64,000 nucleotides of DNA from Candidatus Nomurabacteria bacterium (GTDB lineage Bacteria; Patescibacteriota; Minisyncoccia; Phycocordibacterales; UBA918): NCBI GenBank assembly GCA_020632095.1, contig JACKGF010000001.1:444937-508936 (forward strand), in the 5' to 3' direction. The translations under genes and the position numbers were made by a program. The notes beneath the pieces were generated by a model, which had not been told where the DNA came from, ran no database searches, and saw nothing but the letters and a program-made list of their open reading frames with translations. Shown piece by piece: positions 26,301-64,000 of this stretch (the first letter of the stretch is position 1; each line of letters begins with the position of its first letter).

Positions 26301-27063
26301 CTGGGGTGAAAACGTCACCATTAAAATGTAGAGTTCGATTTGTGTTAGTGTAGACGGGATTTCCTCCATATCCAGCACTCAGATTGCTAGATAATTGATT
26401 GCTCACATAGACTAGATGTGAATCAAGCACATCTTCAATTTTTACACCACTACCAGTACAATCAGCATCACCAATATTCTTTACTGTAATTGTGTATTTT
26501 AGCTCGTCACCAACCACAGCAGTGCTTTTATTTACTGCTTTAGTGACTTCAAGCTCACACTTCTTAGGAACTTCAGGTGGTGGCAGACAACCAACATTCA
26601 CTCTAGCTATACAACTTGAACCGCTTTCATTAAGAGCTGTTAATGTATAGGTGGTATTTTCTTTGATGTTTGTAAAGGTTTTTGAACCCTTGTCACCACT
26701 TACTATCTGACCATTAATACTCCAACTATTAAAACCGGCAGTATCCCAGGAAAGAGTAACGCTGTCTCCAGTGTTCACTGTTTCAGTATTAGCAGTTAGG
26801 TGACATTCAGTAAACGAACCAGAGGATGATTCTGAGGATGCTCCAGAAGTACCTGAAGTACTGGTGACATAACTTGGTGTTTCGCCAAAACCAGTACCGA
26901 AGCTTGAACCAGAGCCAAAACTAGTTCCAGTACCGAAACTTGAATCAAACGCTAACAATGACACAGGGTTAGCTAGAACTGTGAAAGCAAATGCAAACAC
27001 AGCCATTGCGCTAGCAATCGCTTTAAAATATTTATTCATAAAGTGAATATCTGAGTTATTCAT
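23341..27063 (-). CDS. large cell-surface protein (DUF11-like repeats, Ig-like domains, poly-Gly linker, TM segment, cytoplasmic tail)
   Basis: signal peptide; VTKAVNKSTAVVGDELKYTITVKNIGDADCTG DUF11-like repeat; GGGGGGG linker; QVPYTG followed by a TM helix, then a roughly 300-aa C-terminal domain. Confidence 0.6.
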   Translation of the reverse strand: MNNSDIHFMNKYFKAIASAMAVFAFAFTVLANPVSLLAFDSSFGTGTSFGSGSSFGTGFGETPSYVTSTSGTSGASSESSSGSFTECHLTANTETVNTGDSVTLSWDTAGFNSWSINGQIVSGDKGSKTFTNIKENTTYTLTALNESGSSCIARVNVGCLPPPEVPKKCELEVTKAVNKSTAVVGDELKYTITVKNIGDADCTGSGVKIEDVLDSHLVYVSNQLSSNLSAGYGGNPVYTNTNRTLHFNGDVFTPGETGTISVFAKVATPEICGDFEVKNQAKATALELNNYQNWVYSPVVKTMVDNDCYVPKPPTCTLTPALQTISYGGTATLNWTSSNATAVNISSFGAVAQSGSKSTGALFADTNYLLTATGPDGEVKCNAQVKVSEKVIEKATVVAQKIICTDEAQLPNYGNGGPDITANTAANWVATHDTCSFAEGWEFEWTDTYTSDPGDTLIGKANSPWYAFGPTGSFGKTSVQINLSDKTREKVWFREVLKSGYIPFTYGQNGHTNVDNVSAEFYCHNDVINYDNHDYIDGLKADQTYYCVAWNSPVKVVTPAPSCDMFKATPSSILVGASSTLSWETTNATRVFINNGIGDVAVDGNIEVSPLSNITYKLTAMGADEKTVDCEVPVTVTEKKVPVCELFTATPSSLPAGGGDVTLNWKVLNASTVSISPIVGSVALVDSKVVGITESSNFVLTATDADGTKVTCPAPVVVADPEPALTCKDNVSFSISASSIKRGQSATLNWSTTDVDSVSISVINSSALSGTQSVSPSSDTTYVLKATRGSDSVSCPVSIDVTTGGGGGGGTPTPRCELTISDSKIKSGEKVTLIWNTSNATELTLTDDKGKVVFSTDQYLSSEKKDYYDGSIVLRPTRDTKYTLLAERGSRDVECNVSVKTEDNVVVLQTRDQQPLVAGISLSQVPYTGFEAGPIMTFMFYALLIAWAFYITYLLVIRKQASINSVVFTETAVKKVESEKVVETTPHNNYAAASTYASAPVYTEPSNLPTAAPVIGYANYATDSAVEAVEENVEEVVSEPETTNPHQATDAVVTALENRAHEQKALLSSDAIRYFMGNTTGEVERNEALDNVIKESKKHYPLEDGWIVINETRMRGLCDTCLANSVTEVEDPFIPSTIPEGSGSLAEAIVTGNIVAAYEMIGHRPMFALADAASDLDSVYRNRLGGNEIVSDMLTAEAAKLSDDQIKNMINALTSALDGTYNDEASAVKMAIMKAVKEVD

Positions 27064-44893: not shown

Positions 44894-45035
44894 AGTGTTT
44901 TAGGCCCCGAAAAGTTTCTTTATCCCTAAATATGTCATAATTCACTAGCTACTTTACCAACCTGTCTGAATGAAATCATATACAAAAAACTCCCTAATTA
45001 TAGTGAGTGTTTTCGTGTTATTTAAAAAATTTTAA

Positions 45036-49175: not shown

Positions 49176-50795
49176 TCATTCTTTATCCTCACCTTGACGC
49201 CGATAAATTACGTAAATAATAATTAAAATTATCAATAACAAAAAAAATACCACCGAAAACAATACTATTTTTGATGGCCGAAACAACATATCTGGAAACA
49301 CCACCTCACCACTCTCAACCATCGGACCAACAAATGAAATTGGTCCTTGATACTTAGCCACCACCAAGGCTTCGTAGTCATAAATTTCAATAATTAATCT
49401 TGATTTACCAACCACCCCAAGTGATGAGACCATCGCTTCATAAGCAGACTGGTCTTTGTTGATACGCAATAAAAATGAATACTGTTGACGATTGTCAGTT
49501 GGGTCTAACAATGTAACTATGATTGATTTTAAGTTACCAGCGATAGTTTTCTGGGGAATTGATATCTTGAAGGTTCGATCACTTGTGAGGACAATGTCTG
49601 TATCAATCAGTGAATAATTCTGCTCTCCTTGCTCGATGAATATCTGACCAAGTTCGGGCATTTTCATATCAGGTGTCACTCTTTCGACAACCACACTTGA
49701 GGTCGCTTCCTCGGTAATAATTGGTTTACCAATTGGATTATTTACCCCAGAAGGATAACCTCCAATTTCTCCAGTAACACTACTTGAATCAGCAAAAACA
49801 ATGGTCACTGCTCCCGAAGAGACATTACCATAGTTATCGACCACAAAAGCCGTGTAATAAACGGGAGAATACTGACTTAGGATATTTTCATCAAGCACCG
49901 AGGAACCGGTTCCTTGATATACTATCGCACCATCTTGAGGATGAGCTGGAAATCCAATATAACTACGGAGAATTCGAACGTATGAAATATTGTCTCCTTC
50001 CGGTATCTTCCAACTTAATTTAACATTTTCGCCTGTTGCCTCCGCTAAAAACCTAGACACATTAACTGGCGGTAAAACTAAAGCTTTGCTTAAGGTGGTA
50101 AATTGACCATTTTTAACAACCGTCTGGTGACCAGACGGAGTATAGCCAATTATCTGATACTCATAAGTTGTCCCAGGCTCCAAATCTGTCAATAAAACAT
50201 TATGTGACTTTGTATAGGCTTCACGAACAACATAACCTAATTCATACGAAGTACTCTTTCCCCATCTTAATTCAAGCCTGGCCGGAAAAGATGAATTTGC
50301 TTTTATACTTGTAGTAGATACCCCCGGAATGATTTGAAAATCATTTAATACTACTCGAGCTACGGTACTCTCAACTGGATTACTTTCAGGTTCCACTGGC
50401 ACAACTACCACCGGGTTATCTGGTGTTGTAGTCGATAACGAATTAGACGAGGTTGAATAATTAAGAGCAACATCAAAAGCTCTCACAGAATAGGAATAGG
50501 TAGTTGAAGCAGTTAACCCGGTATCGGAATAACTGGTCAAAGTTGTTGTTGCGATTGGTGTACCATCACGAGATACTGAGTACCCAGAAACTGCATAATT
50601 ATCGGTAGACGAAGACCAACTTAAATCAATCTGAATTGGAGCAATTGGGACAGCCGAAAGTAGAGTTGGTGTCGATGGTGGAATAAAATCATCAATTATA
50701 AAAGTCCTGACACTGAAAGAACCCGTATCAACCTGAGCTAGAGCAAGCTGTAGCGGTAAAAAAAATATTAAAAATAAAGCTATTTTTTTCATCAC
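49176..50795 (-). CDS. cell-surface protein with fibronectin type III domains and C-terminal TM anchor
   Basis: signal peptide; FN3-like repeats (LSWSSSTDNYAVSGYSV...YSYSVRAFD); C-terminal hydrophobic anchor and RRQGEDKE tail. Confidence 0.55.
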   Translation of the reverse strand: MMKKIALFLIFFLPLQLALAQVDTGSFSVRTFIIDDFIPPSTPTLLSAVPIAPIQIDLSWSSSTDNYAVSGYSVSRDGTPIATTTLTSYSDTGLTASTTYSYSVRAFDVALNYSTSSNSLSTTTPDNPVVVVPVEPESNPVESTVARVVLNDFQIIPGVSTTSIKANSSFPARLELRWGKSTSYELGYVVREAYTKSHNVLLTDLEPGTTYEYQIIGYTPSGHQTVVKNGQFTTLSKALVLPPVNVSRFLAEATGENVKLSWKIPEGDNISYVRILRSYIGFPAHPQDGAIVYQGTGSSVLDENILSQYSPVYYTAFVVDNYGNVSSGAVTIVFADSSSVTGEIGGYPSGVNNPIGKPIITEEATSSVVVERVTPDMKMPELGQIFIEQGEQNYSLIDTDIVLTSDRTFKISIPQKTIAGNLKSIIVTLLDPTDNRQQYSFLLRINKDQSAYEAMVSSLGVVGKSRLIIEIYDYEALVVAKYQGPISFVGPMVESGEVVFPDMLFRPSKIVLFSVVFFLLLIILIIIYVIYRRQGEDKE

Positions 50796-51556
50796 AAAGG
50801 TAAAGCAGTTATAGTGGTGGTAGCTGTATAAACACCAGCAATTACACCAGCTCCACTACCGATCCCGACCCTGAAACGCACCGTAGTAGTAGCTCCAGCT
50901 GGATGATTTGAACCAATACCTTCTGCTATCGACACTGATGTGGTCGACAAACCATCCCAACAAGTCAGCGTATTGTTATATGAACCTGAGTTACAAGTAC
51001 CAGCATTATCATCCAGAAACTCTTGCACCACATCAACTCCCTCCGGCGTAAAACCAAACGAAGCAGTTCCACCACTGATAAGGAAAGATGGATCTGGATC
51101 AACTCCAGCATTATAGTCAGCAATTGTGTAAGGGCCATTTTGCATCGCTGGATCATTTTGAGCCTCGATCGTTAGACGATACCCAGACGGACTATCTGTA
51201 ATAACAGTAAAGGTAGTTGACCCATTGGAAGTACCCCCAGTTAGACCAGGCAAATCTGGTGACATAACTACATCTCCAGTCGTAGTTAAGCTAACATACA
51301 CTTCTTGCATCTGTTGATATCCCGCTCGCAAAGAGTAAGAAGTACTATCAGACGGACCAGTGGCTATTTCACCGACTGTACTCTCCTGCACATAAGAAGT
51401 TGAAGACGAAAAACCGCCACCGATATTTATACTATCACTTTGTAACTGATAATTAGTACTAGTACGAACCTGCGCTTGAGTAACATTTAATAACAGTAAC
51501 AACACTGTCAGAACTGCGGTAGATACTAAGGAACTGATGATTTGCTTATAGACCAT
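50792..51556 (-). CDS. secreted protein, paralog B of the cassette
   Basis: signal peptide; shares PSFGF, TCW and YTATTT blocks with 52651..53358. Confidence 0.55.
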   Translation of the reverse strand: MVYKQIISSLVSTAVLTVLLLLLNVTQAQVRTSTNYQLQSDSINIGGGFSSSTSYVQESTVGEIATGPSDSTSYSLRAGYQQMQEVYVSLTTTGDVVMSPDLPGLTGGTSNGSTTFTVITDSPSGYRLTIEAQNDPAMQNGPYTIADYNAGVDPDPSFLISGGTASFGFTPEGVDVVQEFLDDNAGTCNSGSYNNTLTCWDGLSTTSVSIAEGIGSNHPAGATTTVRFRVGIGSGAGVIAGVYTATTTITALPL

Positions 51557-51559
51557 ACT

Positions 51560-52633
51560 TTAACCTTTACGCTTAAATTCAAACGTACGGAAAAAGGCTC
51601 TAATACCGAAAATTATAACAAACAAAACAAAGAACATTCCACCGACAATTTTCCAGGGCATCACCCAAAAAGAAACTGATACCTTATCAACAATATCGTC
51701 ATAACCACGGTTAACTTTGGCGGTTGCAGTATACCTACCAAGCAAGAATTCTCTGTCCCAAGTAATCTCTCGCAACCGGAGAGATTTCGGCAAAACAAAC
51801 CATGGTTCAAGTTCAATAAACCCGACTTCTTCACCAAACATATTTTTTATCGACAGTTCACCATATGGGTTCACATGAACAGAACCAGTATTTTCGTATA
51901 AGATACCAAAATCAATTGGACCTTTCTCATACCACCATTTGTTTCTAGTTAGTGAGATATCCGATGTTTTTCCCTCAATTACAACGTCACCTCGCACCCG
52001 TAAAAAGAACAGCGAGCCAACCCTAGCTATAATCGGTGAGCGAGGAGCCGCAGAAACTTCAGAATCAGCCTTACGCACTGTAGAAACTAAAACACTACCA
52101 TAATACCCTCCGGGCGAGGTGTTGGGTGGAACAGTTATTGTAATTGGAATACGAGCTCTTTCACCCAAATCAAGAGTGAAGTTGTCTTCCGGAAAACTAA
52201 TAAAGTCCCTAATGCTGTATGGCCCTACTTTATCACCCGTCAAACTAACAGCACTACTACCATCATCACTACCAGTAATGTCTTCAATCTCAAGCAAAAA
52301 AGATCTGTCAGCACTAATACGGTTTGTAACTGTTATTTCTCGAGTTACAGTCTCTCCTGGACTTACTTCTATCTCCGTTCTACCAGGACCAACCACGAAA
52401 TCACCAACGTCTATGTTTCCTGAGATTCTCTCTGAACGGTACCACAACTCATCATCTTGAGTTAAATCAATCGGTACCACTAACTCGGTAGTTGAAGCGG
52501 TAGACGAAGAAGTTGCTTTAACATTAGTAATATCGTTTTTTTGCTGCGCAAACACCTCTCCAGTGAGAGGTGTAGCAAGAAGCAAAATTGAACAAGCAAC
52601 ACTAATTCTTTTAACAAAAGTAGTCATATCCAT
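51560..52633 (-). CDS. surface protein with signal peptide and C-terminal TM anchor
   Basis: 357 aa; N-terminal signal; C-terminal WKIVGGMFFVLFVIIFGI TM and basic tail. Confidence 0.5.
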   Translation of the reverse strand: MDMTTFVKRISVACSILLLATPLTGEVFAQQKNDITNVKATSSSTASTTELVVPIDLTQDDELWYRSERISGNIDVGDFVVGPGRTEIEVSPGETVTREITVTNRISADRSFLLEIEDITGSDDGSSAVSLTGDKVGPYSIRDFISFPEDNFTLDLGERARIPITITVPPNTSPGGYYGSVLVSTVRKADSEVSAAPRSPIIARVGSLFFLRVRGDVVIEGKTSDISLTRNKWWYEKGPIDFGILYENTGSVHVNPYGELSIKNMFGEEVGFIELEPWFVLPKSLRLREITWDREFLLGRYTATAKVNRGYDDIVDKVSVSFWVMPWKIVGGMFFVLFVIIFGIRAFFRTFEFKRKG

Positions 52634-52650
52634 AATGACTACAGATTACC

Positions 52651-53358
52651 TTATTGGGCAAAGAGTGACAAGGTTGCGGTAGCTGTATAGGTCTGAGCAG
52701 TCGGAACTGGAAGAGCTCCACTTGGCACATTAACTTTAAATTGAATGGTCGAGGTAGCTCCAGTCACAGCAGAAGTCGTCCGATCAACAATTCTGAAAGC
52801 GGTTGTGGCCGGAGACTTCCAACAAGTCTCTGCAGTTTCACTGGTGTCGTTATTACAAACAGCACCGTTGTTATGGAAGGAAGGATCGGTATCACCAATA
52901 GTAGCTGAAGTAACTGTGTAAGCAAACTGAGCCGCTGTACTAGCAGTAAAACCAAATGATGGCTCACCTCCAACATCACTACTGTAGTCGCGAAGAGCTT
53001 CACTAGCATCATTGTCACCAATCATCGCCTCTGGTGTACCATTGTTCTCAAAAGCTATTTCTACATAATATCCAGTAGAATTGTTTGACTGAACAACAAA
53101 ATCTGTTGTTCCTGTAGCATTACCTCCTGTCACACCACTTATACTACCAGCCATAGTCACATTACTTGGGTACACCAAGAAAGAAGTTTCATCGGTGATA
53201 GTTTGGCGAATCCTGAAATCTGGCGCCACCTCATCTCCATAACTAATCATTGGCTCCGCCAGAAAAAAGGAGGCGCATAGTAAAGTAACTATGGTGCCAG
53301 TAGCCGTGAGAGCGTAGAGTGCTGACCGCTTGTAGTGTGTTTGTGTTCTATTTATCAT
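52651..53358 (-). CDS. secreted protein, paralog A of the cassette
   Basis: signal peptide; conserved blocks shared with 50792..51556. Confidence 0.55.
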   Translation of the reverse strand: MINRTQTHYKRSALYALTATGTIVTLLCASFFLAEPMISYGDEVAPDFRIRQTITDETSFLVYPSNVTMAGSISGVTGGNATGTTDFVVQSNNSTGYYVEIAFENNGTPEAMIGDNDASEALRDYSSDVGGEPSFGFTASTAAQFAYTVTSATIGDTDPSFHNNGAVCNNDTSETAETCWKSPATTAFRIVDRTTSAVTGATSTIQFKVNVPSGALPVPTAQTYTATATLSLFAQ

Positions 53359-53466
53359 GATAATGCTAAGTAACTTATAATCTGCTTAAACTTATAACCT
53401 TATTATATCAGCATAATTTTGTAGGGATGTCTGATTTATACAGAGATATGTGTATATCTACTATAG

Positions 53467-54498
53467 TTACGGTAGATAGCTTGTGTTTTTAGCTACCTGA
53501 TTGTCAATATCGTAATTAATAATATCCTTGGCATCGTTAGGGTCCATATTTATAGCCTTTGCCACCAACTCTGCAAAAGCGTCTCGTGCGTACAAATTAG
53601 TATTATTATTGAAGTAGTCATCTACAGCATTACCTTTTAGAGCAGTTATGTAAGGATGGAGCCAGACGTAATATGCTTCCCAGTCATTCCCAAATTGTTG
53701 AGCTACAATATCAACTTCCAATTGGCTTCCACTACTATAAACATCTTCCTTACCACTTAAATTATTGATTACGACTGCCCATCCCCAAATCGGGGTATTC
53801 ATACCAGTAGTTCCATTTCTTTTTGCAAACAAGTGTATTTCATCAATTACGTCAGGAATAACTGTGACAGTTTGAGTGATCATCGCAAATGCAGAAATTG
53901 ACACACCAAAGTCAGTCGCCAATAAATTCAGAACTTCAGTAGTGGTGGTACTGTTGTAACTTTTACTAAAAGAACCATTAGTATTTGTAAATAAAGTAAC
54001 TAATGATTTAGAATTTGGCAGGTCAATTTCAATAGCAATTTTAGTCACACTTGGTAGAGAAACATTTGAAAAATTGGTTACAACCTGCGTTCCAACAGGA
54101 GCTGATGGTGAAGTTAGTAACTGAGTATAATTGCTAGCTATCCACCCCTGCGGACCACCAGCAAATCTAACTTTGTACCACAGTATCCCTCCTGAGACCT
54201 GAGGATCATCTATAATAATAGCCACTTTATCCTTAGGAACAACTTGTCTAACTGGATTAAAAATGCCTGGTCCAGTCCTAACATTTAAATTATCAGTTAG
54301 CTTTACCCAACTAGCAATCAACGGTGATCTGGGGCTTTGTTGTGCTGGTTGCACAGAACCTAGCATCATGTTTGCTACAGAAGAGTAAGCGTCTCCATTG
54401 TCAGCCTTAGCGACACCCGGATTTAAACAAATTAAAAGTGCCAACATGGTTAAAACTGAACCTGTTGCAAGATAGTTATTTTTAATTAAAGCCTTCAT
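53467..54498 (-). CDS. secreted SH3b-domain protein
   Basis: signal peptide; bacterial SH3-like NVRTGPG...YKV segment. Confidence 0.5.
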   Translation of the reverse strand: MKALIKNNYLATGSVLTMLALLICLNPGVAKADNGDAYSSVANMMLGSVQPAQQSPRSPLIASWVKLTDNLNVRTGPGIFNPVRQVVPKDKVAIIIDDPQVSGGILWYKVRFAGGPQGWIASNYTQLLTSPSAPVGTQVVTNFSNVSLPSVTKIAIEIDLPNSKSLVTLFTNTNGSFSKSYNSTTTTEVLNLLATDFGVSISAFAMITQTVTVIPDVIDEIHLFAKRNGTTGMNTPIWGWAVVINNLSGKEDVYSSGSQLEVDIVAQQFGNDWEAYYVWLHPYITALKGNAVDDYFNNNTNLYARDAFAELVAKAINMDPNDAKDIINYDIDNQVAKNTSYLP

Positions 54499-54642: not shown

Positions 54643-57600
54643 CTAAATCCCCCCGCCCCCGCCAGCACCACCGCCACCGGCTTGGTGGAATATGCGGACC
54701 TCCAGAGCGTCGAGATTGAGGGTATTGCCACCGGGTTGAGCGGTCACCCTTAGTCTGAAGAGTGCATTGGAGAAGTTGGCTGGAGTCCAACTGCGACCCC
54801 ATTTGTCTGACGCTCCCCCCACGGTGTAGACCACGTCGGTACCAATGAGGGCTGGGGTGGCTTTAGCGGTGGTGTATGAGCTACCACCATCCCAAGAGAG
54901 TGAGACATCGACGGTGCCACTGGCAGTAGTACCGGAAATGTCTAGTTTAACGGCAATTCCTTCGATGGTATTAGAACCAGGGATATTGAAGCCAAAGGTA
55001 TCGTAGCTTTGTTTGAGGTTGATGGTTGCCGCAGTAGCGTAGACACCATCGGAGAGAAAGGCGTTGGATGGATTGGTCCACTCATTGTCTATATCACCAG
55101 TGGCGGTTGGTCGGAAGAAGTTAACGTCAGCGGCGATGTTTTCGCCGTCGACTGGTTGTCCGACTTCCCCACCTCCATCATCGCCACCCCCAAAGACATC
55201 ACCATCACCATCCGGTGGAGCGCCGCCAATGCGGTCAGACTTGCTACCAGCGCCGTGTTGGTTACGGATATGTTGAATATAGTCTACGGTGTTAGTCATG
55301 GCGGTCGAAACATCTGCTGTGATACCAATAGATGGGAGACTAATGACAACCGCGGCGTTACCGTTGATGGAGACAGTGTCTCCGATTAGGAGGTAGTCGG
55401 CACTGGAGGTAGCACTGAAGTCGCTACTGAAAGTGATAGCGCCGTGTTGACCGTTGATGGTTAAGATACCGGACGCATCTATCTGTGTGTCACCACCGTC
55501 TAGGAGACGGTCACTGTTGTTGTCTTTGTATAGTCTGAGATTAATAAGGTCACTAGTGTCTAGCTTCTGGACTCCAGAGAGAGTGAAGACTAGGTCGGTG
55601 ATAGTGATAGTTGATTCGGCTTCGAGGTTGAAGGCGAAGAGAGCGGTGTCGGTTTTGTTTTGGAAACTGAATTCATTGTCGACTTGGCCAAGGGTATGGT
55701 TGGTGGTGGTCGCGTTGACTAAAATTTCGATGAAGTTCCAACAAGTGTTGTTGCCGGCGTCGTAACCAAAAGGATTGTATAGGTCAGCTGGACAACCGTT
55801 ATTATCTTTGACATTTACGTAGTTGACGGTTTGTTGCGTACCTGGTACGTAAAAGTTGGCTTGCGTACCAGGAGTGGAAGAACGGAGCCAGACGTATGAT
55901 CCGCTGGTGCCTTCGAGAGAAATATCTTGGAAGGTGGAGGTGGCACTTGCGGGGAGTTGGAGAGAGGTAGAGGCGAGCATGGTGAGGGTACCGGTGGTAG
56001 TGACTGGGTCGGTGAGGATGACAGATTGAGAACTACTGCCCATACCACTCTGGTTGGTGATGGTTAGACTGGCGAAGGATGAGGTGGCGGTCATGGAGCC
56101 GGTGAGGGTTTGAGGGGTGGTGCCGGAGAGGGTGAGGAGAGATTCGAGGTCATGACGCGGTTGGTGCCTGTTTGCGCCACCGCCACTAAGAGACCGTTGC
56201 CATAGGTGACAGAGGTCCAAGAATTTGCCTCAGAAGCTGCTCGGGCAGTCCAGGTGATACCGTCGGGAGAGGTCATGACGCGGTTGGTGCCAGAGTCAGA
56301 AACTACCACAAAAGGCCGTTGCCGTAAGTAACCGATAGCCATTGGTTTGATTCAGCCGCAGTACGCGCTGTCCAGGTGGTGCCGTCGGGGGAGGTCATGA
56401 CGCGGTTGGTGCCCCAAGCTACCGCCACGAAGAGACCATTGCCGTAAGTGACAGATGTCCAAAAATTTGCTTCTGCTGCAGAACGCGGTGTCCAAGTGAT
56501 ACCATCTGGGGAGGTCATGACGCGGTTGGTGCCATTACCTGACACTGCCACAAAGAGGCCGTTGCCGTAGGTGACAGAGTACCAAGAGTTTGCCTCAGCG
56601 GCGGAGTGTGATGTCCAGGTGATACCATCTGGGGAGGTCATCACTTGGTTGGTGCCGTTACTAGACACAGCCACGAAGAGACCGTTGCCGTAGGTGACAG
56701 ATCCCCAAAAATTTGCTTCCGCTGCGGAGCGGGCGGTCCAATCAATACCGTCAGGAGATGTCATTACCTTTCCGCTTCCCGACACCGCCACAAAGAGACT
56801 GTTACCGTAGGTGACGGAATACCAATCACTTGTTTCAGCCGCTGTACGGGCAGTCCAGGTGATACCGTCGGGAGAGGTCATGACGCGATTGGTGCCGTCT
56901 GAAGATACCGCCACAAAGAGACCGTTGCCGTAGGTTACAGAACGCCAAAGGTTTGCTTCAGCGGCCGATCGCGCACTCCAACTCCTCCCAGCCCCGTTAT
57001 CGAAGGTGCCGTCGGTGTTGGTGTAGTCGCCAGTGACCGAGAGATGTTGAGGGCCACTACTATTGATGAAGTACCAATCGAGAAATCTGAAGTACTGGCG
57101 TTGTTTGAAAAGTCTTAGTCCCTACTCCAGTGAAAGAGACGTTCCTTAGAGCAGAAGTGCCAGTCATGGTGCCAGTGGCGGTTTGGTCGTTGTCGCCATT
57201 TAAGGTGACGAGTGAGTGGGAGGTCATGACGCGGTTAGTGCCGTCTTGTGATATCGCCACAAGTAACCGTTGCCGTAGGTGACAGAGTACCACGTGTTTG
57301 CTTCAGTGGCAGAGCGAGCGGTCCAGGTGATGCCGTCGGGTGAGGTCATGACGCGGTTGGTGCCGGTATTTGAAACTGCCACAAATAAGCCATTGCCGTA
57401 GGTGACGGAGCGCCACTGATTGGCCCCTGCAGCCGAACGAAGAGTCCAAGTGATGCCGTCAGGGGAGGTCATAACTTGGTAGGCGCCAGAATATGACACT
57501 GAAACAAAGAGACCATTACCGTAGGTGACAGATAACCAAGTAACAGCACTAACAGAGTGAGAGGTCCAGGTGATGCCGTCGGGGAGGTCATAACCGTATT

Positions 57601-60600
57601 AAATCCAACAGCCACAAATAAGCCGTTGCCGTAGGTGACGGAATACCAAGAAATCGCAGCAGCAGCCGTACGAGCGGTCCAATTAATACCGTCGGGGGAG
57701 GTCATGACTTGATTAGTACCGTCCCAGGACACCGCAACAAAGAGGCCGTTGCCGTAGGTGACGGAATACCATTGATTTGCTTGTGCGGCAGAGCGAGCGG
57801 TCCAGGTGATGCCGTCGGGGGAGGTCATGACGCGGTTGGTGCCATTTGTAGATACGGCCACAAAGAGGCCGTTGCCGTAGGTGACGGAATTCCAAGAGTT
57901 GGCCGCGGTGGCCGCGCGAGCGGTCCAGGTGATGCCGTCGGGGGAGGTCATGACGCGGTTGGTGCCTGAGTTTGAGATAGCCACAAAAAGGCCGTTGCCG
58001 TAAGCGACGGAACGCCATGAATTTGCCTCCGCCGCTGACTGCGAAGTCCAGTGACTACCTGCCCCATTATTAAAGGTTCCTTCGTTGGTGTAGTTGCCAG
58101 AAATCGCTAGTTGCTCTGGCGCGACGACAGTCGCGCCAGCATTGATGGACACATCATTCGCCAACACCTTCGTCGCCGAAAATGTCTTCGTCCCCGCCCC
58201 GGTGAAGACCGCGTTACCGAGGTGGGTGGTGCTAGAGGCGGTATCACTAATACTCTGCGCACTAGCGCCGTTGAAGGTAGTGGTGCCGGTCTGTGAGGTC
58301 ATGACGCGGTTGGTGCCACTATCTGCAACCGCCACAAAGAGGCCGTTGCCGGATGTGACGGATCGCCATTGGTTTGCTTCAGCCGCCGCGCGAGCGGTCC
58401 AAGTGATGCCGTCAGGAGAAGTCATGACACGATTACCATCTGTTGTAGCATTACACCACGTCGTATTATAACCACACGCCACTGCAACAAAGAGCCCATT
58501 GCCGTAGGTGACGGAGTACCAACTATTTGCCTCAGCGGCAGAGCGAGCGGTCCAATTGATACCGTCAGGAGAAGTCATGGTGCGGTTGGTGCCGTTTTGT
58601 GCTACTGCTACAAAGAGGCCGTTGCCGTAGGTGACGGAATTCCAGCTGTTAGCTTCAGCGGCCGCTCGGGCGGTCCAGATGGTTCCGTCGGGGGAGGTCA
58701 TAACTTGATTAGTACCGCCCCAAGACACAGCCACAAACAGACCGTTGCCGTAAGTGACTGAGGACCATGAATTGGCTTCAGCCGGTGTACGGTCAGTCCA
58801 AGTAATGCCGTCGGGGGAGGTCATTACATCTCCAGTACTAGCCCCATAAGAATCATTATATGGCGCCACAGCCACAAACAGGCCGTTGCCGTAGGTGACG
58901 GAGCTCCATTTTCTTACAACAGCGGCCGAGCGGGCCGTCCAGGTGGTGCCGTCGAGGGAGGTCATGACGCGGTTGGTGCCAGATTCTGCCACCGCCACAA
59001 ACAGGCCGTTGCCGTAGGTGACTGAGGTCCAAGAGTTTGCCTCAGCCGCCGAGCGAGCGGTCCAGGTGATGCCGTCGGGGGAGGTCATGACGCGGTTGGT
59101 GCCAGATTCTGCCACCGCCACAAAGAGACCGTTGCCGTAGGTGACGGAATTCCAAGTGTTTGCCTCAGCAGCGGAGCGAGCGGTCCAAATACCTGCATAT
59201 GCATCATAAGTACTATTATTAGTAAACTGTCCACTCACACTAAGCTCTTCAGCTACAACAACCCCATCATCATTCACTAGATTGGTAGTGGAGGCAGTGG
59301 TATTGATTGTTTTATTATTGGTACCAGTAAAAGAAAGTGTGTTGAAGGCTGATGTGCTTGTGGCTACACCATTAATTATGACTGAATTGTCACCAAGAGC
59401 GGTAACTAGGCTACTGGAAGAAGCAGTCATAACACGGTTGGTGCCGTCAGATGATACAGCTACAAAAGTACCGTTGCCGTAGGTGACTGAAAGCCATGTG
59501 TTTGCTTCAGTAGCAGAACGAGTGGTCCAGGTGATGCCGTCGGGAGAGGTCATAAGTGTTCCACAAGGATCAATATAAGATGAATCTAGATTACATACAG
59601 CAACGAAAAGGCCGTTGCCGTAGGTGACTGATTGCCACTGATTTGCCTCTGCAGCAGAGCGAGCAGTCCAGGTGATGCCGTCGGGGGAGGTCATAAGATT
59701 ATCACAAAGACTGTAAATCAAATCATATGCACACACCGCCACAAACAGGCCGTTGCCGTAGGTGACGGAGTACCAAGCATTTGGTGAGGTAGCAGCCCGG
59801 GCGGTCCAAGTGCTACCGTCGGGGAGGTCATAACTTGGTAGGCGCCAGAATATGACACTGAAACAAAGAGACCATTACCGTAGGTGACAGATAACCAAGT
59901 AACAGCACTAACAGAGTGAGAGGTCCAGGTGATGCCGTCGAGGGAGGTCATGACGCGATTGGTGCCGTCAGCAGATACAGCCACAAAGAGGCCGTTGCCG
60001 TAGGTGATGGAGGTCCATTGGTTTGCCTCGGTGGCAGCACGGGCAGTCCAGGTGACACCATCGGGGGAGGTCATGACGCGGTTGGTGCCGTCAGCAGATA
60101 CAGCCACAAACAGACCGTTGCCGTAGGTGACGGATTTCCATGAGTTAGCTTCAGCCGCTGCACGAGCCGTCCAAGTGATGCCGTCAGGGGAGGTCATGAC
60201 GCGGTTGGTGCCGGTGTTTGAAACCGCCACGAAAAGGCCGTTGCCGTAGGTGACGGAGAACCAGGAGTTTGCCTCCGCCGCACTCCTCGCCGTCCAAACC
60301 GTCCCCTCATTCCCAAAAGTCGTCGTCCCACTATTATGAGTAAAGGTACCATTGTTAGTATAGTCACCCGTAATCGTAATGTTATCGGCCGGAGCGACTA
60401 AGGTAGCGCCAGCGTCGATAGTGATGTCTGTAGTGGTGGCATTGGTAGCAAAGGTGTAAGTACCAGTTCCCCCGAACTTGAGGTTACCAATTGGTTGGGT
60501 AGCAGTGATAGTCTTCCCTGTCGTACTAGCATTAAAGTAGATAGTGCCGTGGTTACCGACTAGAGCCGTCGAAGAAGCTGATAGATTACCAGCGAGTGTA

Positions 60601-61328
60601 GTGGTACCACTAGTGAGATAAGTAGCATCGGTGGCAATATGCATTGAACCGTCTACCCCACTGCCAGCGTTGCCGTAGACAGTAACCTCTCCGCCAGGGA
60701 TGAAGAGTTTGCCAGTGTTTATATATAGTTTATTGCCAGCGTTGACATCAAACGTAGCCGCCGTGGATGAGGCGTTGTATTGAATGTCGCTGTCATTGTC
60801 GTTATCGTAGAAAGCGAGGTCTCTGATACTGGTGGAGGTACTAGTGGTGGCGCCTTCGTGGGAGATGATGACTCTGTTTTGGTAGATATTTAAGTCAGGA
60901 ATACTGTTCACGGTACTGGAAGACTTAGTGAATATAGAGCCTCGGACAGAAGCATTACCATCTACCCAAGCGACCACTGGTGTGCCCGTTGCCAGTGAAG
61001 AGAACGTGAAGTACCAGTCGCCACTGGCGTCAGTGGTGGTGGAGTGGATAGAAGGTGGAGTTGAAGTACCGACCGCTAGCTTGATAGTTTCAGAAGCAAT
61101 TGGAGTAATACCTTCGTCTGAGTAGAGGGTTCCCGAAACCGTGAGAGCATGAGCTTGGGTTGTAAACAAGAAAAAAAGAAGAGTAGTGAGGGAGAATTTG
61201 AAGAAAGTAGACAGAACGGAAGATGTTCCAACTTTATTATCACAAGTTAAAGTGTTTTTGAAACAGCCAAACAAATCAGAGAAAATCTGACTGAAGGTAT
61301 TTTTTAGTTTTGGATTAAAATTTATCAT
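54643..61328 (-). pseudogene. giant Asp-box repeat surface protein gene (~6.7 kb) broken into at least 7 ORFs by frame breaks
   Basis: signal peptide at the 61328 end; dozens of ~37-aa repeats TNRVMTSPDGITWTARSAAEANSWxSVTYGNGLFVAV (S-x-D-x-G-x-T-W); overlapping ORFs 59718-61328, 57469-59742, 57224-57499, 57060-57293, 56303-56914, 56091-56342 and 54643-56220; Gly-rich C-terminus. Confidence 0.6.
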
Positions 61329-61335
61329 AATTTAC

Positions 61336-64000
61336 CTATTGGTTTGATGTTTCAACTACTACTTCGGGGACTTCTGGTAACAATTCTTCGACTTCCATCT
61401 CTGGCTCTTCGACTACTTCCTCTATTACTTCTGGCTCTGTATTTTCCTCTTCTATTTCTATCGGGGTCTCATCCTCAACTATCTCCCCTACTTCCTCAAC
61501 CACACTTTCCTCATTCACCACTTCTACTTCGACTGTTTCCTCCTCGGTCTCCTCGCCAGTCGTGTAACTTTCTTCCTCTGGTATAACTTCTTCAGGTGGA
61601 GGCGGCGGAGGTGTACTATCCTCCACCACCGTCGTTCCACCGCCGCCTCCACCACTCGACTCTTGACTCTTATTAAGGATTTGTCGCAAATCATCGGCGT
61701 TGACACAAACCCCATCGACACACAATTCCTCCCTCACCTCCACCCGCTCCGCCTTCAAAGTAAACACCGACAACACTCCATCAATAAAGTTATTAGCCAG
61801 CTTCACCATGCGTTGCCAGACGGTTTCTTTGGTGTTGGTGGTGATAGCTTGATTAGTGTAATCAGTCGCCGTGGTACTCGCGGTCATCAGAAGTGAAGCC
61901 AACATATTTTGTCCTTGTGCATCAAAGTAACGGTAACCAGCCTGCACAAACATCACCACCTGCCCTACCTGCACTGTTTGGTTGTTGGCGAGTTTGAGTT
62001 TCTGGCTTGGGGTTCTTGCTAATTTATCTAGAGCCGCTTTTTGAGCCGCTGCGAGAGCAAGAGCTTCCGCTTCTTTGATACGGGCGTCAGTGGTGGTGGC
62101 AATTAATGGTACACACGCTTCTTCCCCCGAGGCGTTACCCGCTCCAAAGTAGCAACCGTCGTTGATACGCGGGTCATTGTCACGGTTGATTGGCGTGAAG
62201 ACTGGTTCTACTAGGTCATCACCAAACTGATTAATATATGTATTGGAATATTTACGAGTATCATCAAAGTCTTCCAGCGCAATACCGATAGTGACTCCAG
62301 TACTGGTCGCTTTCATGGCGATACCTGGTAGTGAAGACATCATCAGTTGATCACCTTTCTTGATTGGTCCAGCTTCGGTAGAGAGCTTAACTGGCACACG
62401 TCCTGATAGAGCGACTGGGAAGGCAGTTTCACCGGCGTTGAGTGAAGTGTCGTCTGATCCAAGCAAGAGACCCGGCTTGGTGGAGACGACTCCGAGGATT
62501 GGCGTGGTACTGTCCTTGGTGGCACGATTGATCGAGAGACCACCGGCTAGCGTGACGATTTCACCTGGTTCTAGGTCGGCACTGGAGAAATAGTTTTCAG
62601 CCAAGTCGGAGTTACCGGCGTAGGTAGAGACGGAAGCAATCCGGCCTTTGACGGTAGCTAAACAACTACCATCATCATCAACACAGAGTCCACCGTTACC
62701 AATCTGGAGTCCAGCCCATTTGCTGGTGGTGCCGTCACCAATGGTGGTAGTACCGTGAGCAGAGACGGTAAAGACGGAGGTACCACCGTTTTGGAAGTCG
62801 AGGTATTTGGAGGTGGTACTAGAGAAGCTACCACCGGAGTTACCGAAGTTCATCAGAAGACCAGTGCCAGTGAAGGTAGAGGAAGCGTGGAAGAGTTTCA
62901 TCAGAGCCGCACTGGTGATGTATGAAGAATAACCACGGATAGCGTTACCTTGGGAGGTACCGTCAGTTTGACCGTAGATACCAGCCGGTTCGAAAGTTCC
63001 ACCAGCATCTCCAGCTGTAGTACCACGAACCCCGAAAGTCCGAGCAAAGCCAGAGAGCGCAGTGTTTTCGCCTTGGGTGTTGGTGCCACGGTCGGTTTGG
63101 ACTTCGAGACCACGGATGGTGTTGCCGTAGACGGTGCTGTCTTTGATGCGGAACATGCTACCGACGGTAGTAGTAGTGGCAGTGTTGGCAGTGTTCAAGT
63201 AGAAGCGATTACCGTACTGGACGGCTGAGGCGACGCTGTTTTGCGTGTCGAGGTATTGATCGAGACCGACCACGCCCGCCCCCGAGAAGGCGGTGTTTTG
63301 GATTGATAATCTTGCGTTAGGAGATGAAGTTCCTATCCCAATATTACCAGTTGAAAGAGTAGTACCAGTACCATCAACCCCCGTACCAAAGATAAGGTTA
63401 CCGATATTTAACACATCATCAGCTGTTGTACTAAAAGCGTCGATGTCGTAACCAATGAAGATACCGCGGTCGACAGTGAGGGCATTGTCGGCGGTTTTGT
63501 ATCCGATGGCGATAGTGCCGGTACCGTTGTTGTTGTAGAGAGTATTGTATCCAAGAGCGTTGTTAAACGAACCGGTAATGTTTGCAATTAAAGCTCCGTT
63601 ACCAAATGAGTTGTTGTTGCCTCCTGAAGTGTTTGAGAATAAAGAAGCGTAACCAAAAGCTGTGTTGTTGCTTCCGGTGGTGTTTGAGTAGAGGGCTGAG
63701 TTACCAAATGAGTTGTTGTTGCTTCCGGTGGTGTTTGAGTAAAGGGCTTGTATACCAAAGGCATTACTGGAAGAACCAGTGGTGTTTTGGTGTAGCGTGT
63801 TATAGCCAATAGCATTGTTGAATGAACCAGAAGTGTTTGAATGTAGGGATTCAAAGCCAAGAGCATTGTTTCCTGAACCACTCATACCAACTCCTTGTAA
63901 GGCTTCTAAACCGACGGCGAAGTTATTATCTCCATCGACTAGATTACTCATAGCTCCGTCTCCAATAGCGTAGTTGTAGGTGGCGCCGTTGGTGAAAGAG
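61336..64000 (-). CDS. tail-fibre-like repeat protein (partial; N-terminus outside the window)
   Basis: degenerate ~14-aa repeats (NNAxGYNTLxxNTTGS...); poly-Gly and poly-Pro linkers; acidic C-terminal tail; the frame continues past 63951 to the window edge. Confidence 0.55.
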   Translation of the reverse strand, partial: SFTNGATYNYAIGDGAMSNLVDGDNNFAVGLEALQGVGMSGSGNNALGFESLHSNTSGSFNNAIGYNTLHQNTTGSSSNAFGIQALYSNTTGSNNNSFGNSALYSNTTGSNNTAFGYASLFSNTSGGNNNSFGNGALIANITGSFNNALGYNTLYNNNGTGTIAIGYKTADNALTVDRGIFIGYDIDAFSTTADDVLNIGNLIFGTGVDGTGTTLSTGNIGIGTSSPNARLSIQNTAFSGAGVVGLDQYLDTQNSVASAVQYGNRFYLNTANTATTTTVGSMFRIKDSTVYGNTIRGLEVQTDRGTNTQGENTALSGFARTFGVRGTTAGDAGGTFEPAGIYGQTDGTSQGNAIRGYSSYITSAALMKLFHASSTFTGTGLLMNFGNSGGSFSSTTSKYLDFQNGGTSVFTVSAHGTTTIGDGTTSKWAGLQIGNGGLCVDDDGSCLATVKGRIASVSTYAGNSDLAENYFSSADLEPGEIVTLAGGLSINRATKDSTTPILGVVSTKPGLLLGSDDTSLNAGETAFPVALSGRVPVKLSTEAGPIKKGDQLMMSSLPGIAMKATSTGVTIGIALEDFDDTRKYSNTYINQFGDDLVEPVFTPINRDNDPRINDGCYFGAGNASGEEACVPLIATTTDARIKEAEALALAAAQKAALDKLARTPSQKLKLANNQTVQVGQVVMFVQAGYRYFDAQGQNMLASLLMTASTTATDYTNQAITTNTKETVWQRMVKLANNFIDGVLSVFTLKAERVEVREELCVDGVCVNADDLRQILNKSQESSGGGGGGTTVVEDSTPPPPPPEEVIPEEESYTTGEETEEETVEVEVVNEESVVEEVGEIVEDETPIEIEEENTEPEVIEEVVEEPEMEVEELLPEVPEVVVETSNQ

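Follow-up and report, generated by a model that had tools for sequence, protein, structure and literature searches.

Seven single-base frame breaks, probably sequencing errors, divide the gene for a very large secreted repeat protein in Candidatus Nomurabacteria

Two groups of short-repeat propellers are the closest described counterparts of the protein reported here. In the EPTP/EAR propellers of animals (PF03736; LGI1-4, ADGRV1), repeats of ~40–45 aa build a 7-bladed propeller that functions in protein binding, and the animal EPTP repeats are far less regular than the S-P-D-G-I-T-W / Y-G-N-G-L-F-V-A-V signature which characterizes the blades of the present protein. BNR/Asp-box propellers, found in the PSII assembly factor Ycf48, sialidases and Vps10/sortilin, carry a short blade motif of the S-x-D-...-G-x-T-W type. 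Surface proteins with LVIVD repeats are found in other Paceibacterota, namely L007 (MAG ABC1.92, 1843 aa) and L008 (Parcubacteria OLB19). With respect to sequencing, benchmarks indicate that the residual errors of hybrid long-read assemblies sit in repeats and are mostly 1-bp indels (PMC8442456; PMC9262707).

The window, that is, the whole 64,000-nt stretch of DNA analysed, belongs to the MAG chromosome of a Candidatus Nomurabacteria bacterium (Paceibacterota, CPR/Patescibacteria) and contains one very large gene encoding a secreted, modular protein of 2230 aa. The gene occupies positions 54643–61328 on the minus strand, its start codon, ATG, lying at 61328 and its stop codon at 54643–54645, in agreement with a preliminary description which had noted a repeat-rich minus-strand coding region beginning with a signal peptide and had estimated an intact length of ~2200 aa. 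As deposited, the gene consists of seven open segments in alternating frames, annotated in the source record as seven fragments (H6784_02350 to H6784_02380), and restoration of seven bases yields a single 2230-codon ORF with no stop codons.

The leader (residues 1–62, 61143–61328; all module coordinates refer to the minus strand) contains, as read from the translation, a hydrophobic stretch that resembles a signal peptide and closes with AHA|LTVSG, and this layout, with an AHA|LTVSG-type stretch, is conserved in the L008 orthologue. It is followed by an N-terminal domain and a first beta-strand-rich linker (residues 63–340, 60309–61142), a region recognized by similarity to relatives, being 40–48% identical to the N-termini of related metagenome proteins and visibly like the start of the L008 protein, for which no Pfam or NCBIfam match was reported. 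Four propellers of 7 blades each follow, separated by linkers of ~80 aa. Blade anchors, seven per module, mark propellers 1 (59422–60308; blades of ~41 aa), 2 (58297–59193), 3 (57219–58056) and 4 (56148–56986), and for propeller 2 there are also an AlphaFold2 model and a Pfam EPTP match of 2.3e-20. Propeller 2 is free of frame breaks, propeller 1 holds break 1, propeller 3 holds breaks 2 and 3, and propeller 4 holds break 5, with break 6 at its 3' edge. The beta-strand-rich linker 2, of ~76 aa, lies between propellers 1 and 2 (59194–59421), linker 3 at 58057–58296 and linker 4 at 56987–57218, and a pattern common to L007 and L008, ...T(F/I)..NASTT.....G..VVAP..L(T/S)(I/V)SG.YTN.GTF.N..G, recurs in the linkers. 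Linker 5 and a CPR-specific C-terminal module of ~500 aa (54646–56147) complete the protein. The last ~130 aa of this module and its Gly-run tail form a separable domain, these ~130 aa also terminating carboxypeptidase-, subtilase- and PQQ-like proteins. The 39 relatives of the C-terminal module that carry names are all from Patescibacteria, and almost all C-terminal relatives are located on contigs of 1–20 kb. A Gly/Asp-rich C-terminus had been described previously; the tail is indeed Gly-rich (GGGGAGGGGGI), but the Gly/Asp-rich stretch lies ~190 aa further upstream.

Blade anchors in the repaired protein define 28 repeats, arranged 7+7+7+7, with a unit of ~123 nt or 41 aa (TRF period 123; blade spacing mostly 41 aa), and not the more than 40 near-identical repeats of ~111 nt counted initially. 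At the DNA level the blades are not near-identical, most being 60–88% identical to the reference copies, with one pair at least 90% identical in BLAST in addition to an exact 120-nt pair found by direct extension. At the protein level, W-x-S-V-T-Y-G-N-G-x-F-V is kept in all 28 blades after repair. The preliminary description had placed an Asp-box in every repeat. A regular-expression search of the repaired protein for the canonical S-x-D-x-G-x-T-W (S.D.G.TW) matches in none of the 28 blades, whereas S-x-D-G-x-x-W (S.DG..W) gives 24 matches; the blade motif, S-x-D-G-x-T-W, is an Asp-box minus one residue, and the Asp-box label is a resemblance and no more.

Family searches place the repeat with EPTP. 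Pfam EPTP (PF03736) is the only family to score above its threshold, at 72.8 bits for propeller 2 and 51.8 bits for the N-terminal third (713 aa) against a cut-off of 21, scores that are sums over weak repeats, no single stretch being significant alone. The Pfam models BNR (PF02012), BNR_2 (PF13088) and PSII_BNR (PF14870), to which the suggested Asp-box affinity had pointed, appear neither among the matches to the N-terminal 713 aa (E ≤ 0.1) nor among those to propeller 2 (E ≤ 0.01). A precomputed EPTP label is attached to most of the listed bacterial relatives, and a precomputed PF02012 label to a few distant ones. The 41-aa bacterial repeat is very widespread, unusually uniform and known to Pfam only via an animal family. 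Unlike the animal EPTP/EAR proteins, the present bacterial protein carries four tandem propellers and no LRR partner domain; unlike the BNR/Asp-box propellers, its motif is one residue shorter and the BNR models are silent.

An AlphaFold2 model of propeller 2, computed with an 85-sequence alignment (pLDDT 93.6, pTM 0.92), has about 28 strands and is read as a predicted 7-bladed beta-propeller; a single-sequence model of linker-propeller-linker was not usable (pLDDT 43.8). The best natural Foldseek match of the propeller model is Ycf48 (TM 0.69, E 2.5e-11), which is also the only PDB sequence matched by the family profile (E 0.028), and a phmmer search of one propeller against PDB sequences returned no match. 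The propeller may be Ycf48-like, as had been proposed, at the level of the fold only. Specific structural similarity of the model to the solved LGI1 EPTP domain was not found. A reading as an adhesin-like surface protein is plausible, with a putative location at the cell surface and putative binding of host or partner ligands via the propeller faces.

The architecture is shared with the LVIVD proteins, which have the same pattern of N-terminal domain and linkers and a C-terminal module 58% identical to that described here. Their repeats belong to a different family (ACSQTAGSA.GCELQVYDISSSTNP...; Pfam LVIVD 8.9e-13 in L008), and the occurrence of different repeats on the same scaffold suggests that a propeller cassette has been exchanged on a conserved scaffold. 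Gene order is also comparable. Immediately upstream in the window is a gene for an 871-aa tail-fibre-like repeat protein (61336–63951, minus strand), identified by PHROG matches (virion structural protein, 9e-21; tail spike, 6e-10) and syntenic with an 845-aa gene in L008, which likewise has a tail-fibre-like gene upstream. Downstream, at 49176–54498 on the minus strand, come genes for an SH3 protein, for three small secreted proteins, of which one is PamT-like, and for a protein carrying two fn3 domains, an order (SH3/small secreted/fn3) that is the same in L007, where the small secreted proteins are followed by GAPDH/RpiB/Rpe/transketolase-sized genes, matching the position in the window. 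Together, these downstream neighbours may constitute a pam-like pilus cluster.

The reading frame of the gene is broken seven times, where the preliminary description had counted at least six switches, and exactly one base is lost each time, the frame passing through 0>2>1>0>2>1>0>2. An apparent +1 step near 57060–57120 is resolved into two separate 1-nt losses, breaks 4a and 4b. The segments overlap at the breaks by 25 to 130 nt, with one gap, a wider range than the 25 to 40 nt given initially. Five of the seven breaks occur in runs that are 4–5 bases long when intact (C5 to C4 twice, T5 to T4 twice and C4 to C3 once) and two in runs of 2–3 bases, as judged against intact blades, L001 and L002 (see below). 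Breaks 1 and 2 are alike: break 1 (59821–59824, minus strand, as are all breaks) reads CCCC in place of the TCCCCCGAC or TCCCCTGAC of intact blades and lies at the right edge of one copy of the 120-nt duplicate, while break 2 (57581–57584) is at the same ATGACCTCCCCGACGG junction, with C4 in place of C5, on the left border of the other copy. Break 3 (57265–57266) reads GGT-TACTTGTGG, with one base lost within YGNG|LLVAIS. At break 4a (57108–57111) a T4 run stands where T5 would restore GTKTFSNNASTSDFS, at break 4b (57050–57053) GCCCT stands where GCCCCT would restore VVAPQHLSVTG, at break 5 (56310–56313) the run is again T4, and break 6 (56146–56147) reads ACCT-CGAA. Use of an alternative genetic code was rejected, as the breaks are frame changes and not in-frame stops and the rest of the window is clean with table 11. 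The other long ORFs of the window are intact. Collapse of repeats, raised in the preliminary description, was likewise rejected, since each of the four propellers has exactly seven blades.

Independent short-read assemblies of near-identical strains, L001 (ENA), L003 (Logan) and L002, cover six of the seven sites, break 2 being outside their coverage, and are in frame at all six. At three covered sites, breaks 1, 5 and 6, the flanks are identical. At break 1 the in-frame sequence of L002 is ACCTCTCCGGACGG, bordered by 281 and 386 nt of 100% identity. The base missing at breaks 5 and 6 is present in both L001 and L003, L001 having T5 (GGCCTTTTTGTGG) at break 5 and both having ACCTCCGAA at break 6, where L002 has ACCTCTGAA. 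These two breaks are the only differences between the window and L001 or L003 from 56660 to 55416, and in propeller 4 L001 is identical except for the two bases missing from the window. For breaks 3, 4a and 4b, the sole comparison is with an L002 allele that is ~80% identical; against it break 3 appears as a 1-nt gap relative to an in-frame sequence, and the L002 protein reads TKTFSNNASTSDFSIG at break 4a. L002 contains an uninterrupted ORF of 991 codons spanning breaks 3, 4a, 4b, 5 and 6 and an uninterrupted copy of propeller 1 that is 94% identical. For the protein stretch from break 2 to break 4b, a large protein search reached no closer than distant repeat proteins (≤74% identity) and gave no same-species evidence, and scans of GTDB-representative and JGI genomes returned distant relatives only.

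Outside the breaks, the assemblies agree closely. The strain of L001 and L003 is ~99.7% identical to the window over the first 6.6 kb and ~99.2% over all 13.2 kb of L001, the sole other indel in these 13.2 kb being one of 9 nt in an intergenic position, and L002 differs by 3 substitutions in ~8 kb of flanking genes, with no internal indel over 9.2 kb. No other 1-nt indel was found in more than 20 kb compared with independent assemblies (~11 kb of non-repeat sequence against L001 and 9.2 kb against L002). In the C-terminal part, 17 substitutions relative to L001 change only 3 amino acids, which suggests that the region downstream of all the breaks is under selection. All three short-read contigs end within the repeat gene, whereas the window crosses it on a 997-kb contig, and for this reason the source assembly was presumably made with long reads.

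We consider it most likely that the seven breaks are uncorrected homopolymer-type 1-base deletions that arose from sequencing in the repeat gene and are absent from the DNA of the organism. A long-read-based metagenome assembly would leave behind single-base deletions, mostly in short one-base runs, and polishing with short reads is not dependable in repeated sequence or where co-occurring strains carry different versions of a gene. Breaks 1 and 2 both border the gene's single exact 120-nt duplicate, where short reads are most ambiguous. The pattern is that of long-read and hybrid homopolymer errors, which create false pseudogenes: 1-base indels in short runs, concentrated in repeats, with unique sequence clean. 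It departs from benchmarked long-read errors in that insertions and deletions are about equally frequent there overall, while here all seven events are deletions. Nine C5 and three T5 runs within the same gene are intact, so that the error process would have to be patchy, which counts against an artefact.

A genuine, very recent pseudogene, in which seven real single-base deletions have ended production of one protein in the source strain, is unlikely to be the explanation. The breaks do stand in the deposited sequence, where they are annotated as seven separate genes; host-dependent bacteria frequently lose surface proteins, bacterial mutation is biased towards deletion, and intact sister strains are compatible with a strain-specific loss, since a gene truly lost in one strain would still appear intact in its sisters. 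In principle, CPR genomes with weak mismatch repair could also gain homopolymer deletions quickly. However, all seven events are 1-nt deletions, with no insertion, larger indel or stop codon in 2230 codons, and no motif is eroded, the blade motif being kept in every blade. Around breaks 1, 5 and 6, ~1.9 kb are identical to independent assemblies apart from one converted blade, so that these three indels would have occurred without any substitution where, by our own rough estimate from usual indel-to-substitution ratios, several to tens would be expected. Once the first break had occurred, at codon ~503, selection would give no reason for the later mutations to be so tidy, and a mutational origin leaves the position of two breaks at the edges of an exact duplicate unexplained.

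Nor do the same observations favour frame changes that serve a function, whether programmed -1 ribosomal frameshifting, transcriptional slippage or phase variation, which we regard as extremely improbable. Phase variation is common in genes for variable surface proteins, and a -1 slip of proline tRNA on CC-CCG at breaks 1 and 2 would restore S-P-D-G. Seven successive frameshifts would, however, give a negligible yield, no slippery heptamer is common to the seven sites, and the runs of 1–4 bases are far below the tracts known to slip at useful rates. The shifts are also not conserved, close relatives being in frame with the same residues at six of the seven sites. Among the readings offered in the preliminary description, the indel artefact is thus favoured, collapse and a variable frame find no support, and a pseudogene is unlikely.

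The exact 120-nt duplicate comprises a whole blade (DGITWTSHSVSAVTWLSVTYGNGLFVSVSYSGAYQVMTSP) and was delimited by direct extension, copy A lying at 59821–59940 and copy B at 57462–57581, both on the minus strand; one blade is thus present in exact copy in propellers 1 and 3. At the site of copy A, L002 has a different blade between identical flanks, the blade at 59821–59921 of the window being ~30% divergent from it and an exact match to sequence elsewhere in the gene, and the edges of this patch carry GTTATGACCTCCCCGACGG at each of breaks 1 and 2. Otherwise near-identical strains also diverge strongly in the repeat gene: the window and L002 differ by 165 substitutions in 55000–56150 as compared with 3 in the next 8 kb, and the order of propellers differs, the last propeller of L002 being the first of the source strain. 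A chimeric origin of the L002 order is unlikely, as its junctions share only ~23 nt, which would be less than the usual assembly k-mers. These features could be produced by a consensus or chimera of mixed strains, in which alleles of a hypervariable gene were merged and mis-threaded reads or local re-assembly during polishing created the 120-nt duplicate and part of the breaks. Under this variant of the artefact reading, errors would extend from run lengths to the local sequence itself. We judge this very unlikely: the duplicated blade is well formed and in frame, each propeller still has seven blades, genuine gene conversion between repeats would look alike, and a patch located 2.36 kb away should not be brought in by long reads that span the gene.

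We also propose, tentatively and with considerable doubt, that this is a CPR host-contact locus, bounded by the tail-fibre-like gene and the pam-like pilus cluster, in which a conserved scaffold (leader, N-terminal domain, linkers of beta-strands and the C-terminal module) carries swappable propeller cassettes, EPTP-like in the source strain and LVIVD-type in L007 and L008. Strains of one species would in addition reshuffle or convert whole blades and propellers, such recombination generating variation in the recognition of partner or host. In the boldest version of this proposal, the seven deletions would also be real and would mark an 'off' allele in the source strain.

The biology of the locus is moderately interesting, combining a uniform 41-aa repeat, an exchange of propeller type, strain-level reshuffling and an adjoining pilus-like operon, although none of these features overturns current views. 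If the breaks are artefactual, as we consider most likely, seven 'hypothetical proteins' in the public record (the fragments listed above) are one surface protein of 2230 aa. Truncation or splitting of giant repeat genes of this sort is routine in CPR MAGs, as illustrated by the L008 orthologue, which its short-read assembly presents as two separate ORFs, and by the C-terminal relatives on short contigs. In consequence, these episymbionts are systematically under-described in their largest proteins, which are probably also those most relevant to the host.

The giant repeat gene, located on the minus strand at 61328-54643, consists in the deposited sequence of seven long open stretches whose frame alternates. 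Exact protein matches trace it to an NCBI MAG named Candidatus Nomurabacteria bacterium, where the public record for the 997,259-bp contig splits it into seven separate hypothetical proteins (H6784_02350 to H6784_02380). As the window also encodes DnaE, GyrB, SMC, ThrS, PheT and RNase R, it is derived from a bacterial chromosome. Tandem Repeats Finder detects arrays with a 123-nt period at 56146-60282, and G+C content is 54-56% in the repeat region versus 43% overall. Along the gene the frame proceeds 0>2>1>0>2>1>0>2, each step being a single-base loss; the seeming +1 step near 57060-57120 consists of two 1-nt losses that flank a short third-frame stretch. The regularity of the repeats allowed every break to be located with a precision of a few bases. 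On the minus strand, breaks 1 (59821-59824) and 2 (57581-57584) read ATGACCTCCCCGACGG where intact blades have TCCCCCGAC or TCCCCTGAC, break 3 (57265-57266) reads GGT-TAC, breaks 4a (57108-57111) and 5 (56310-56313) have T4 in place of T5, break 4b (57050-57053) has C3 in place of C4 and break 6 (56146-56147) has C in place of CC. When one base is added at each of the seven sites, the segments join into one 2230-codon ORF that is free of internal stop codons.

The repaired protein begins with a leader containing a signal-peptide-like stretch, followed by an N-terminal domain extending to about residue 340, four modules (propellers 1-4) of exactly seven blades apiece, separated by linkers of ~76-80 aa with a recurring pattern, and a C-terminal module of ~500 aa terminating in GGGGAGGGGGI. 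The 28 blade anchors, W-x-S-V-T-Y-G-N-G-x-F-V, are spaced mostly at 41 aa. The preliminary description of a large repeat gene with frame breaks thus holds, as does its predicted total size of about 2200 aa; its repeat length of 111 nt and copy number of more than 40 were too low and too high, respectively, and the Asp-box S-x-D-x-G-x-T-W that it placed in every repeat fits 0 of 28 blades, the blade motif S-P-D-G-I-T-W being one residue shorter.

When propeller 2 and the N-terminal third were searched against Pfam, EPTP (PF03736) was the only family matching, at 2.3e-20 (72.8 bits) and 8.3e-14, respectively, BNR models giving no match in either. Ycf48, the other propeller family proposed for the repeat, was reached weakly, as the sole match of the family profile among PDB sequences (E 0.028). 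AlphaFold2, supplied with an 85-sequence alignment, returned a confident model (pLDDT 93.6, pTM 0.92) whose ~28 strands we interpret as a propeller of seven blades. The repeat occurs very widely: of the 8000 proteins scored, 7229 reach E <= 1e-10. Carriers include Flavobacterium, Paenibacillus and Alteromonadaceae as well as Actinomycetota, Micavibrio and Leptospira, and the consensus nearly equals that of the giant gene. The gene belongs to an already known kind, the large beta-propeller repeat surface proteins.

The frame breaks were compared with independent short-read assemblies of near-identical strains. Six other public contigs carry the SH3 gene that lies downstream of the giant gene, each encoding an identical product. 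L001 (ENA) and L003 (Logan), whose identity to the window is 99.65% across the 6.3-6.7 kb first compared, have the extra base at breaks 5 and 6, and these bases are the only differences between 56660 and 55416. The sole further indel in all 13.2 kb of L001 is intergenic and 9 nt long, an insertion of ACATATTTA at window positions 44927-44935 relative to the L001 strain; the 13 kb compared contain no further indel outside the giant gene. Across about 8 kb of flanking genes, 3 substitutions separate L002 (NCBI GCA_020428725.1) from the window, and there are zero internal indels over 9.2 kb. The L002 allele of the giant gene is an unbroken ORF of 991 codons reaching the contig end, in frame at breaks 3, 4a, 4b, 5 and 6. 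A copy of propeller 1 in L002 is in frame at break 1, with flanks 100% identical to the window over 281 and 386 nt. Independent contigs therefore cover six of the seven breaks (1, 3, 4a, 4b, 5 and 6), break 2 being uncovered. All three short-read contigs end within the repeat; the window runs across it.

These comparisons suggest that the frame breaks are probably assembly errors in a large repeat gene that is itself real and intact. Each of the seven events deletes 1 nt, mostly within a single-base run, the repaired frame contains zero stop codons and zero eroded blade motifs, and the unique sequence flanking the gene has zero 1-nt indels. In addition, ~1.9 kb around three breaks is identical to the sister strains, so that the covered indels would have arisen without any accompanying substitution. 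Short-read-polished long-read assemblies retain residual errors that are mostly 1-bp indels located in repeats, often with none outside (PMC8442456; also PMC9262707), a published behaviour which the break pattern matches. Counting against an error process, nine C5 and three T5 runs within the gene are intact. A true recent pseudogene is an unlikely reading on the evidence for error, even though strain-specific loss would leave the relatives looking intact too. A variant of the artefact in which a mixture of strains was assembled appears very improbable. Least credible is functional frameshifting or phase variation, given how short the tracts are, that relatives do not conserve the shifts and that seven frameshifts in series would give a negligible yield. 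A second repeat surface protein in the window, of 1240 aa with DUF11-type repeats (23341-27063, minus strand; TIGR01451, 1.3e-10), is intact in the assembly, indicating that frame problems are peculiar to the gene with the most repeats.

A complete blade occurs as two exact 120-nt copies, one in propeller 1 (copy A, 59940-59821) and one in propeller 3 (copy B, 57581-57462), BLAST giving only one other blade pair of at least 90% identity. At the position of copy A, L002 has a different blade (~70% identical) between perfectly identical flanks, suggesting that a blade-sized tract was converted in the window. Copy A has break 1 at its right edge and copy B has break 2 at its left edge, with GTTATGACCTCCCCGACGG at either junction; given ~24 S-P-D-G sites, we estimate the chance of two breaks falling on the four duplicate edges at ~0.02. 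Real gene conversion is the simplest account of the duplicate, a patch introduced during polishing being the alternative. With conversion, the C5 runs at the edges of an exact duplicate could have been impossible to polish.

Positional orthologues are found in two other Paceibacterota, as an intact 1843-aa ORF in MAG ABC1.92 (L007 1308-6839) and, in the short-read assembly of Parcubacteria OLB19 (L008 2908-8771), split into ORFs of 1171 and 760 aa. Both share the N-terminal domain, linker pattern and C-terminal module (58% identity), but their propellers are built of an LVIVD-type repeat (ACSQTAGSA.GCELQVYDISSSTNP) rather than the EPTP-like repeat. Third-position G+C is 0.58-0.63 in the propellers versus 0.28 in linker 2, with a genome G+C of 0.415, making the giant gene a compositional mosaic (56148-60308 versus the rest). 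This composition would fit a propeller cassette acquired from elsewhere.

L002 1-1500 was set against window positions 59426-60281 and 56150-57538. The last propeller before the C-terminal module in L002 corresponds to propeller 1 of the window (59426-60281), with 100% identity over 281+386 nt. In the first half of the C-terminal module, L002 differs from the window by 165 substitutions, mostly synonymous, against the 3 in about 8 kb of flanking genes. Between these strains, reshuffling and allele exchange are confined to the giant gene. Relative to L001, L003 and L004, two whole codons of this module are swapped, GTC>TCA at 54808-54811 and CCA>GGT at 54976-54979; these are multi-nucleotide changes, not point mutations, and the other differences around them are synonymous.

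Upstream of the giant gene, 61336-63951 (minus strand) encodes a tail-fibre-like protein of 871 aa with N-terminal NT..G repeats, an acidic Glu/Val-rich tail and PHROG matches to virion structural (9e-21) and tail spike (6e-10) proteins, and an 845-aa counterpart occupies the same position in OLB19. Downstream lie the SH3 protein and a cluster of small secreted proteins (49176-53358, minus strand), the latter with its gene order kept in ABC1.92. Among its products, a 254-aa protein (50792-51556, minus strand) matches NCBIfam CPR_pilus_PamT (E 8.9e-14) at 51.5 bits, far short of the cut-off (240), a second protein gives a weak match of the WxL-interacting peptidoglycan-binding type, and one of 539 aa contains two fn3 domains. 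The cluster may be a diverged pam-type pilus operon; a tail-fibre-like gene is reported to co-localise with CPR pam pilus operons (preprint 10.64898/2026.03.03.709456).

The last ~130 aa and Gly run ending in Ile (54646-55143, minus strand) recur as the C-terminal ends of secreted CPR proteins that are unrelated to it, including a zinc carboxypeptidase, a subtilase and PQQ-like repeat proteins, and the terminal run in OLB19 is GGGGGGGGGI. This segment may serve in anchoring or sorting, as a C-terminal domain specific to CPR. The giant protein would be exported through Sec and anchored on the cell surface via its C-terminal module, with stiff beta-strand spacers displaying four propeller faces for binding to a ligand carried by a partner or host cell. 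The strong variation between strains in this single gene fits such a recognition role. The cassette exchange and strain reshuffling are the aspects most worth following.
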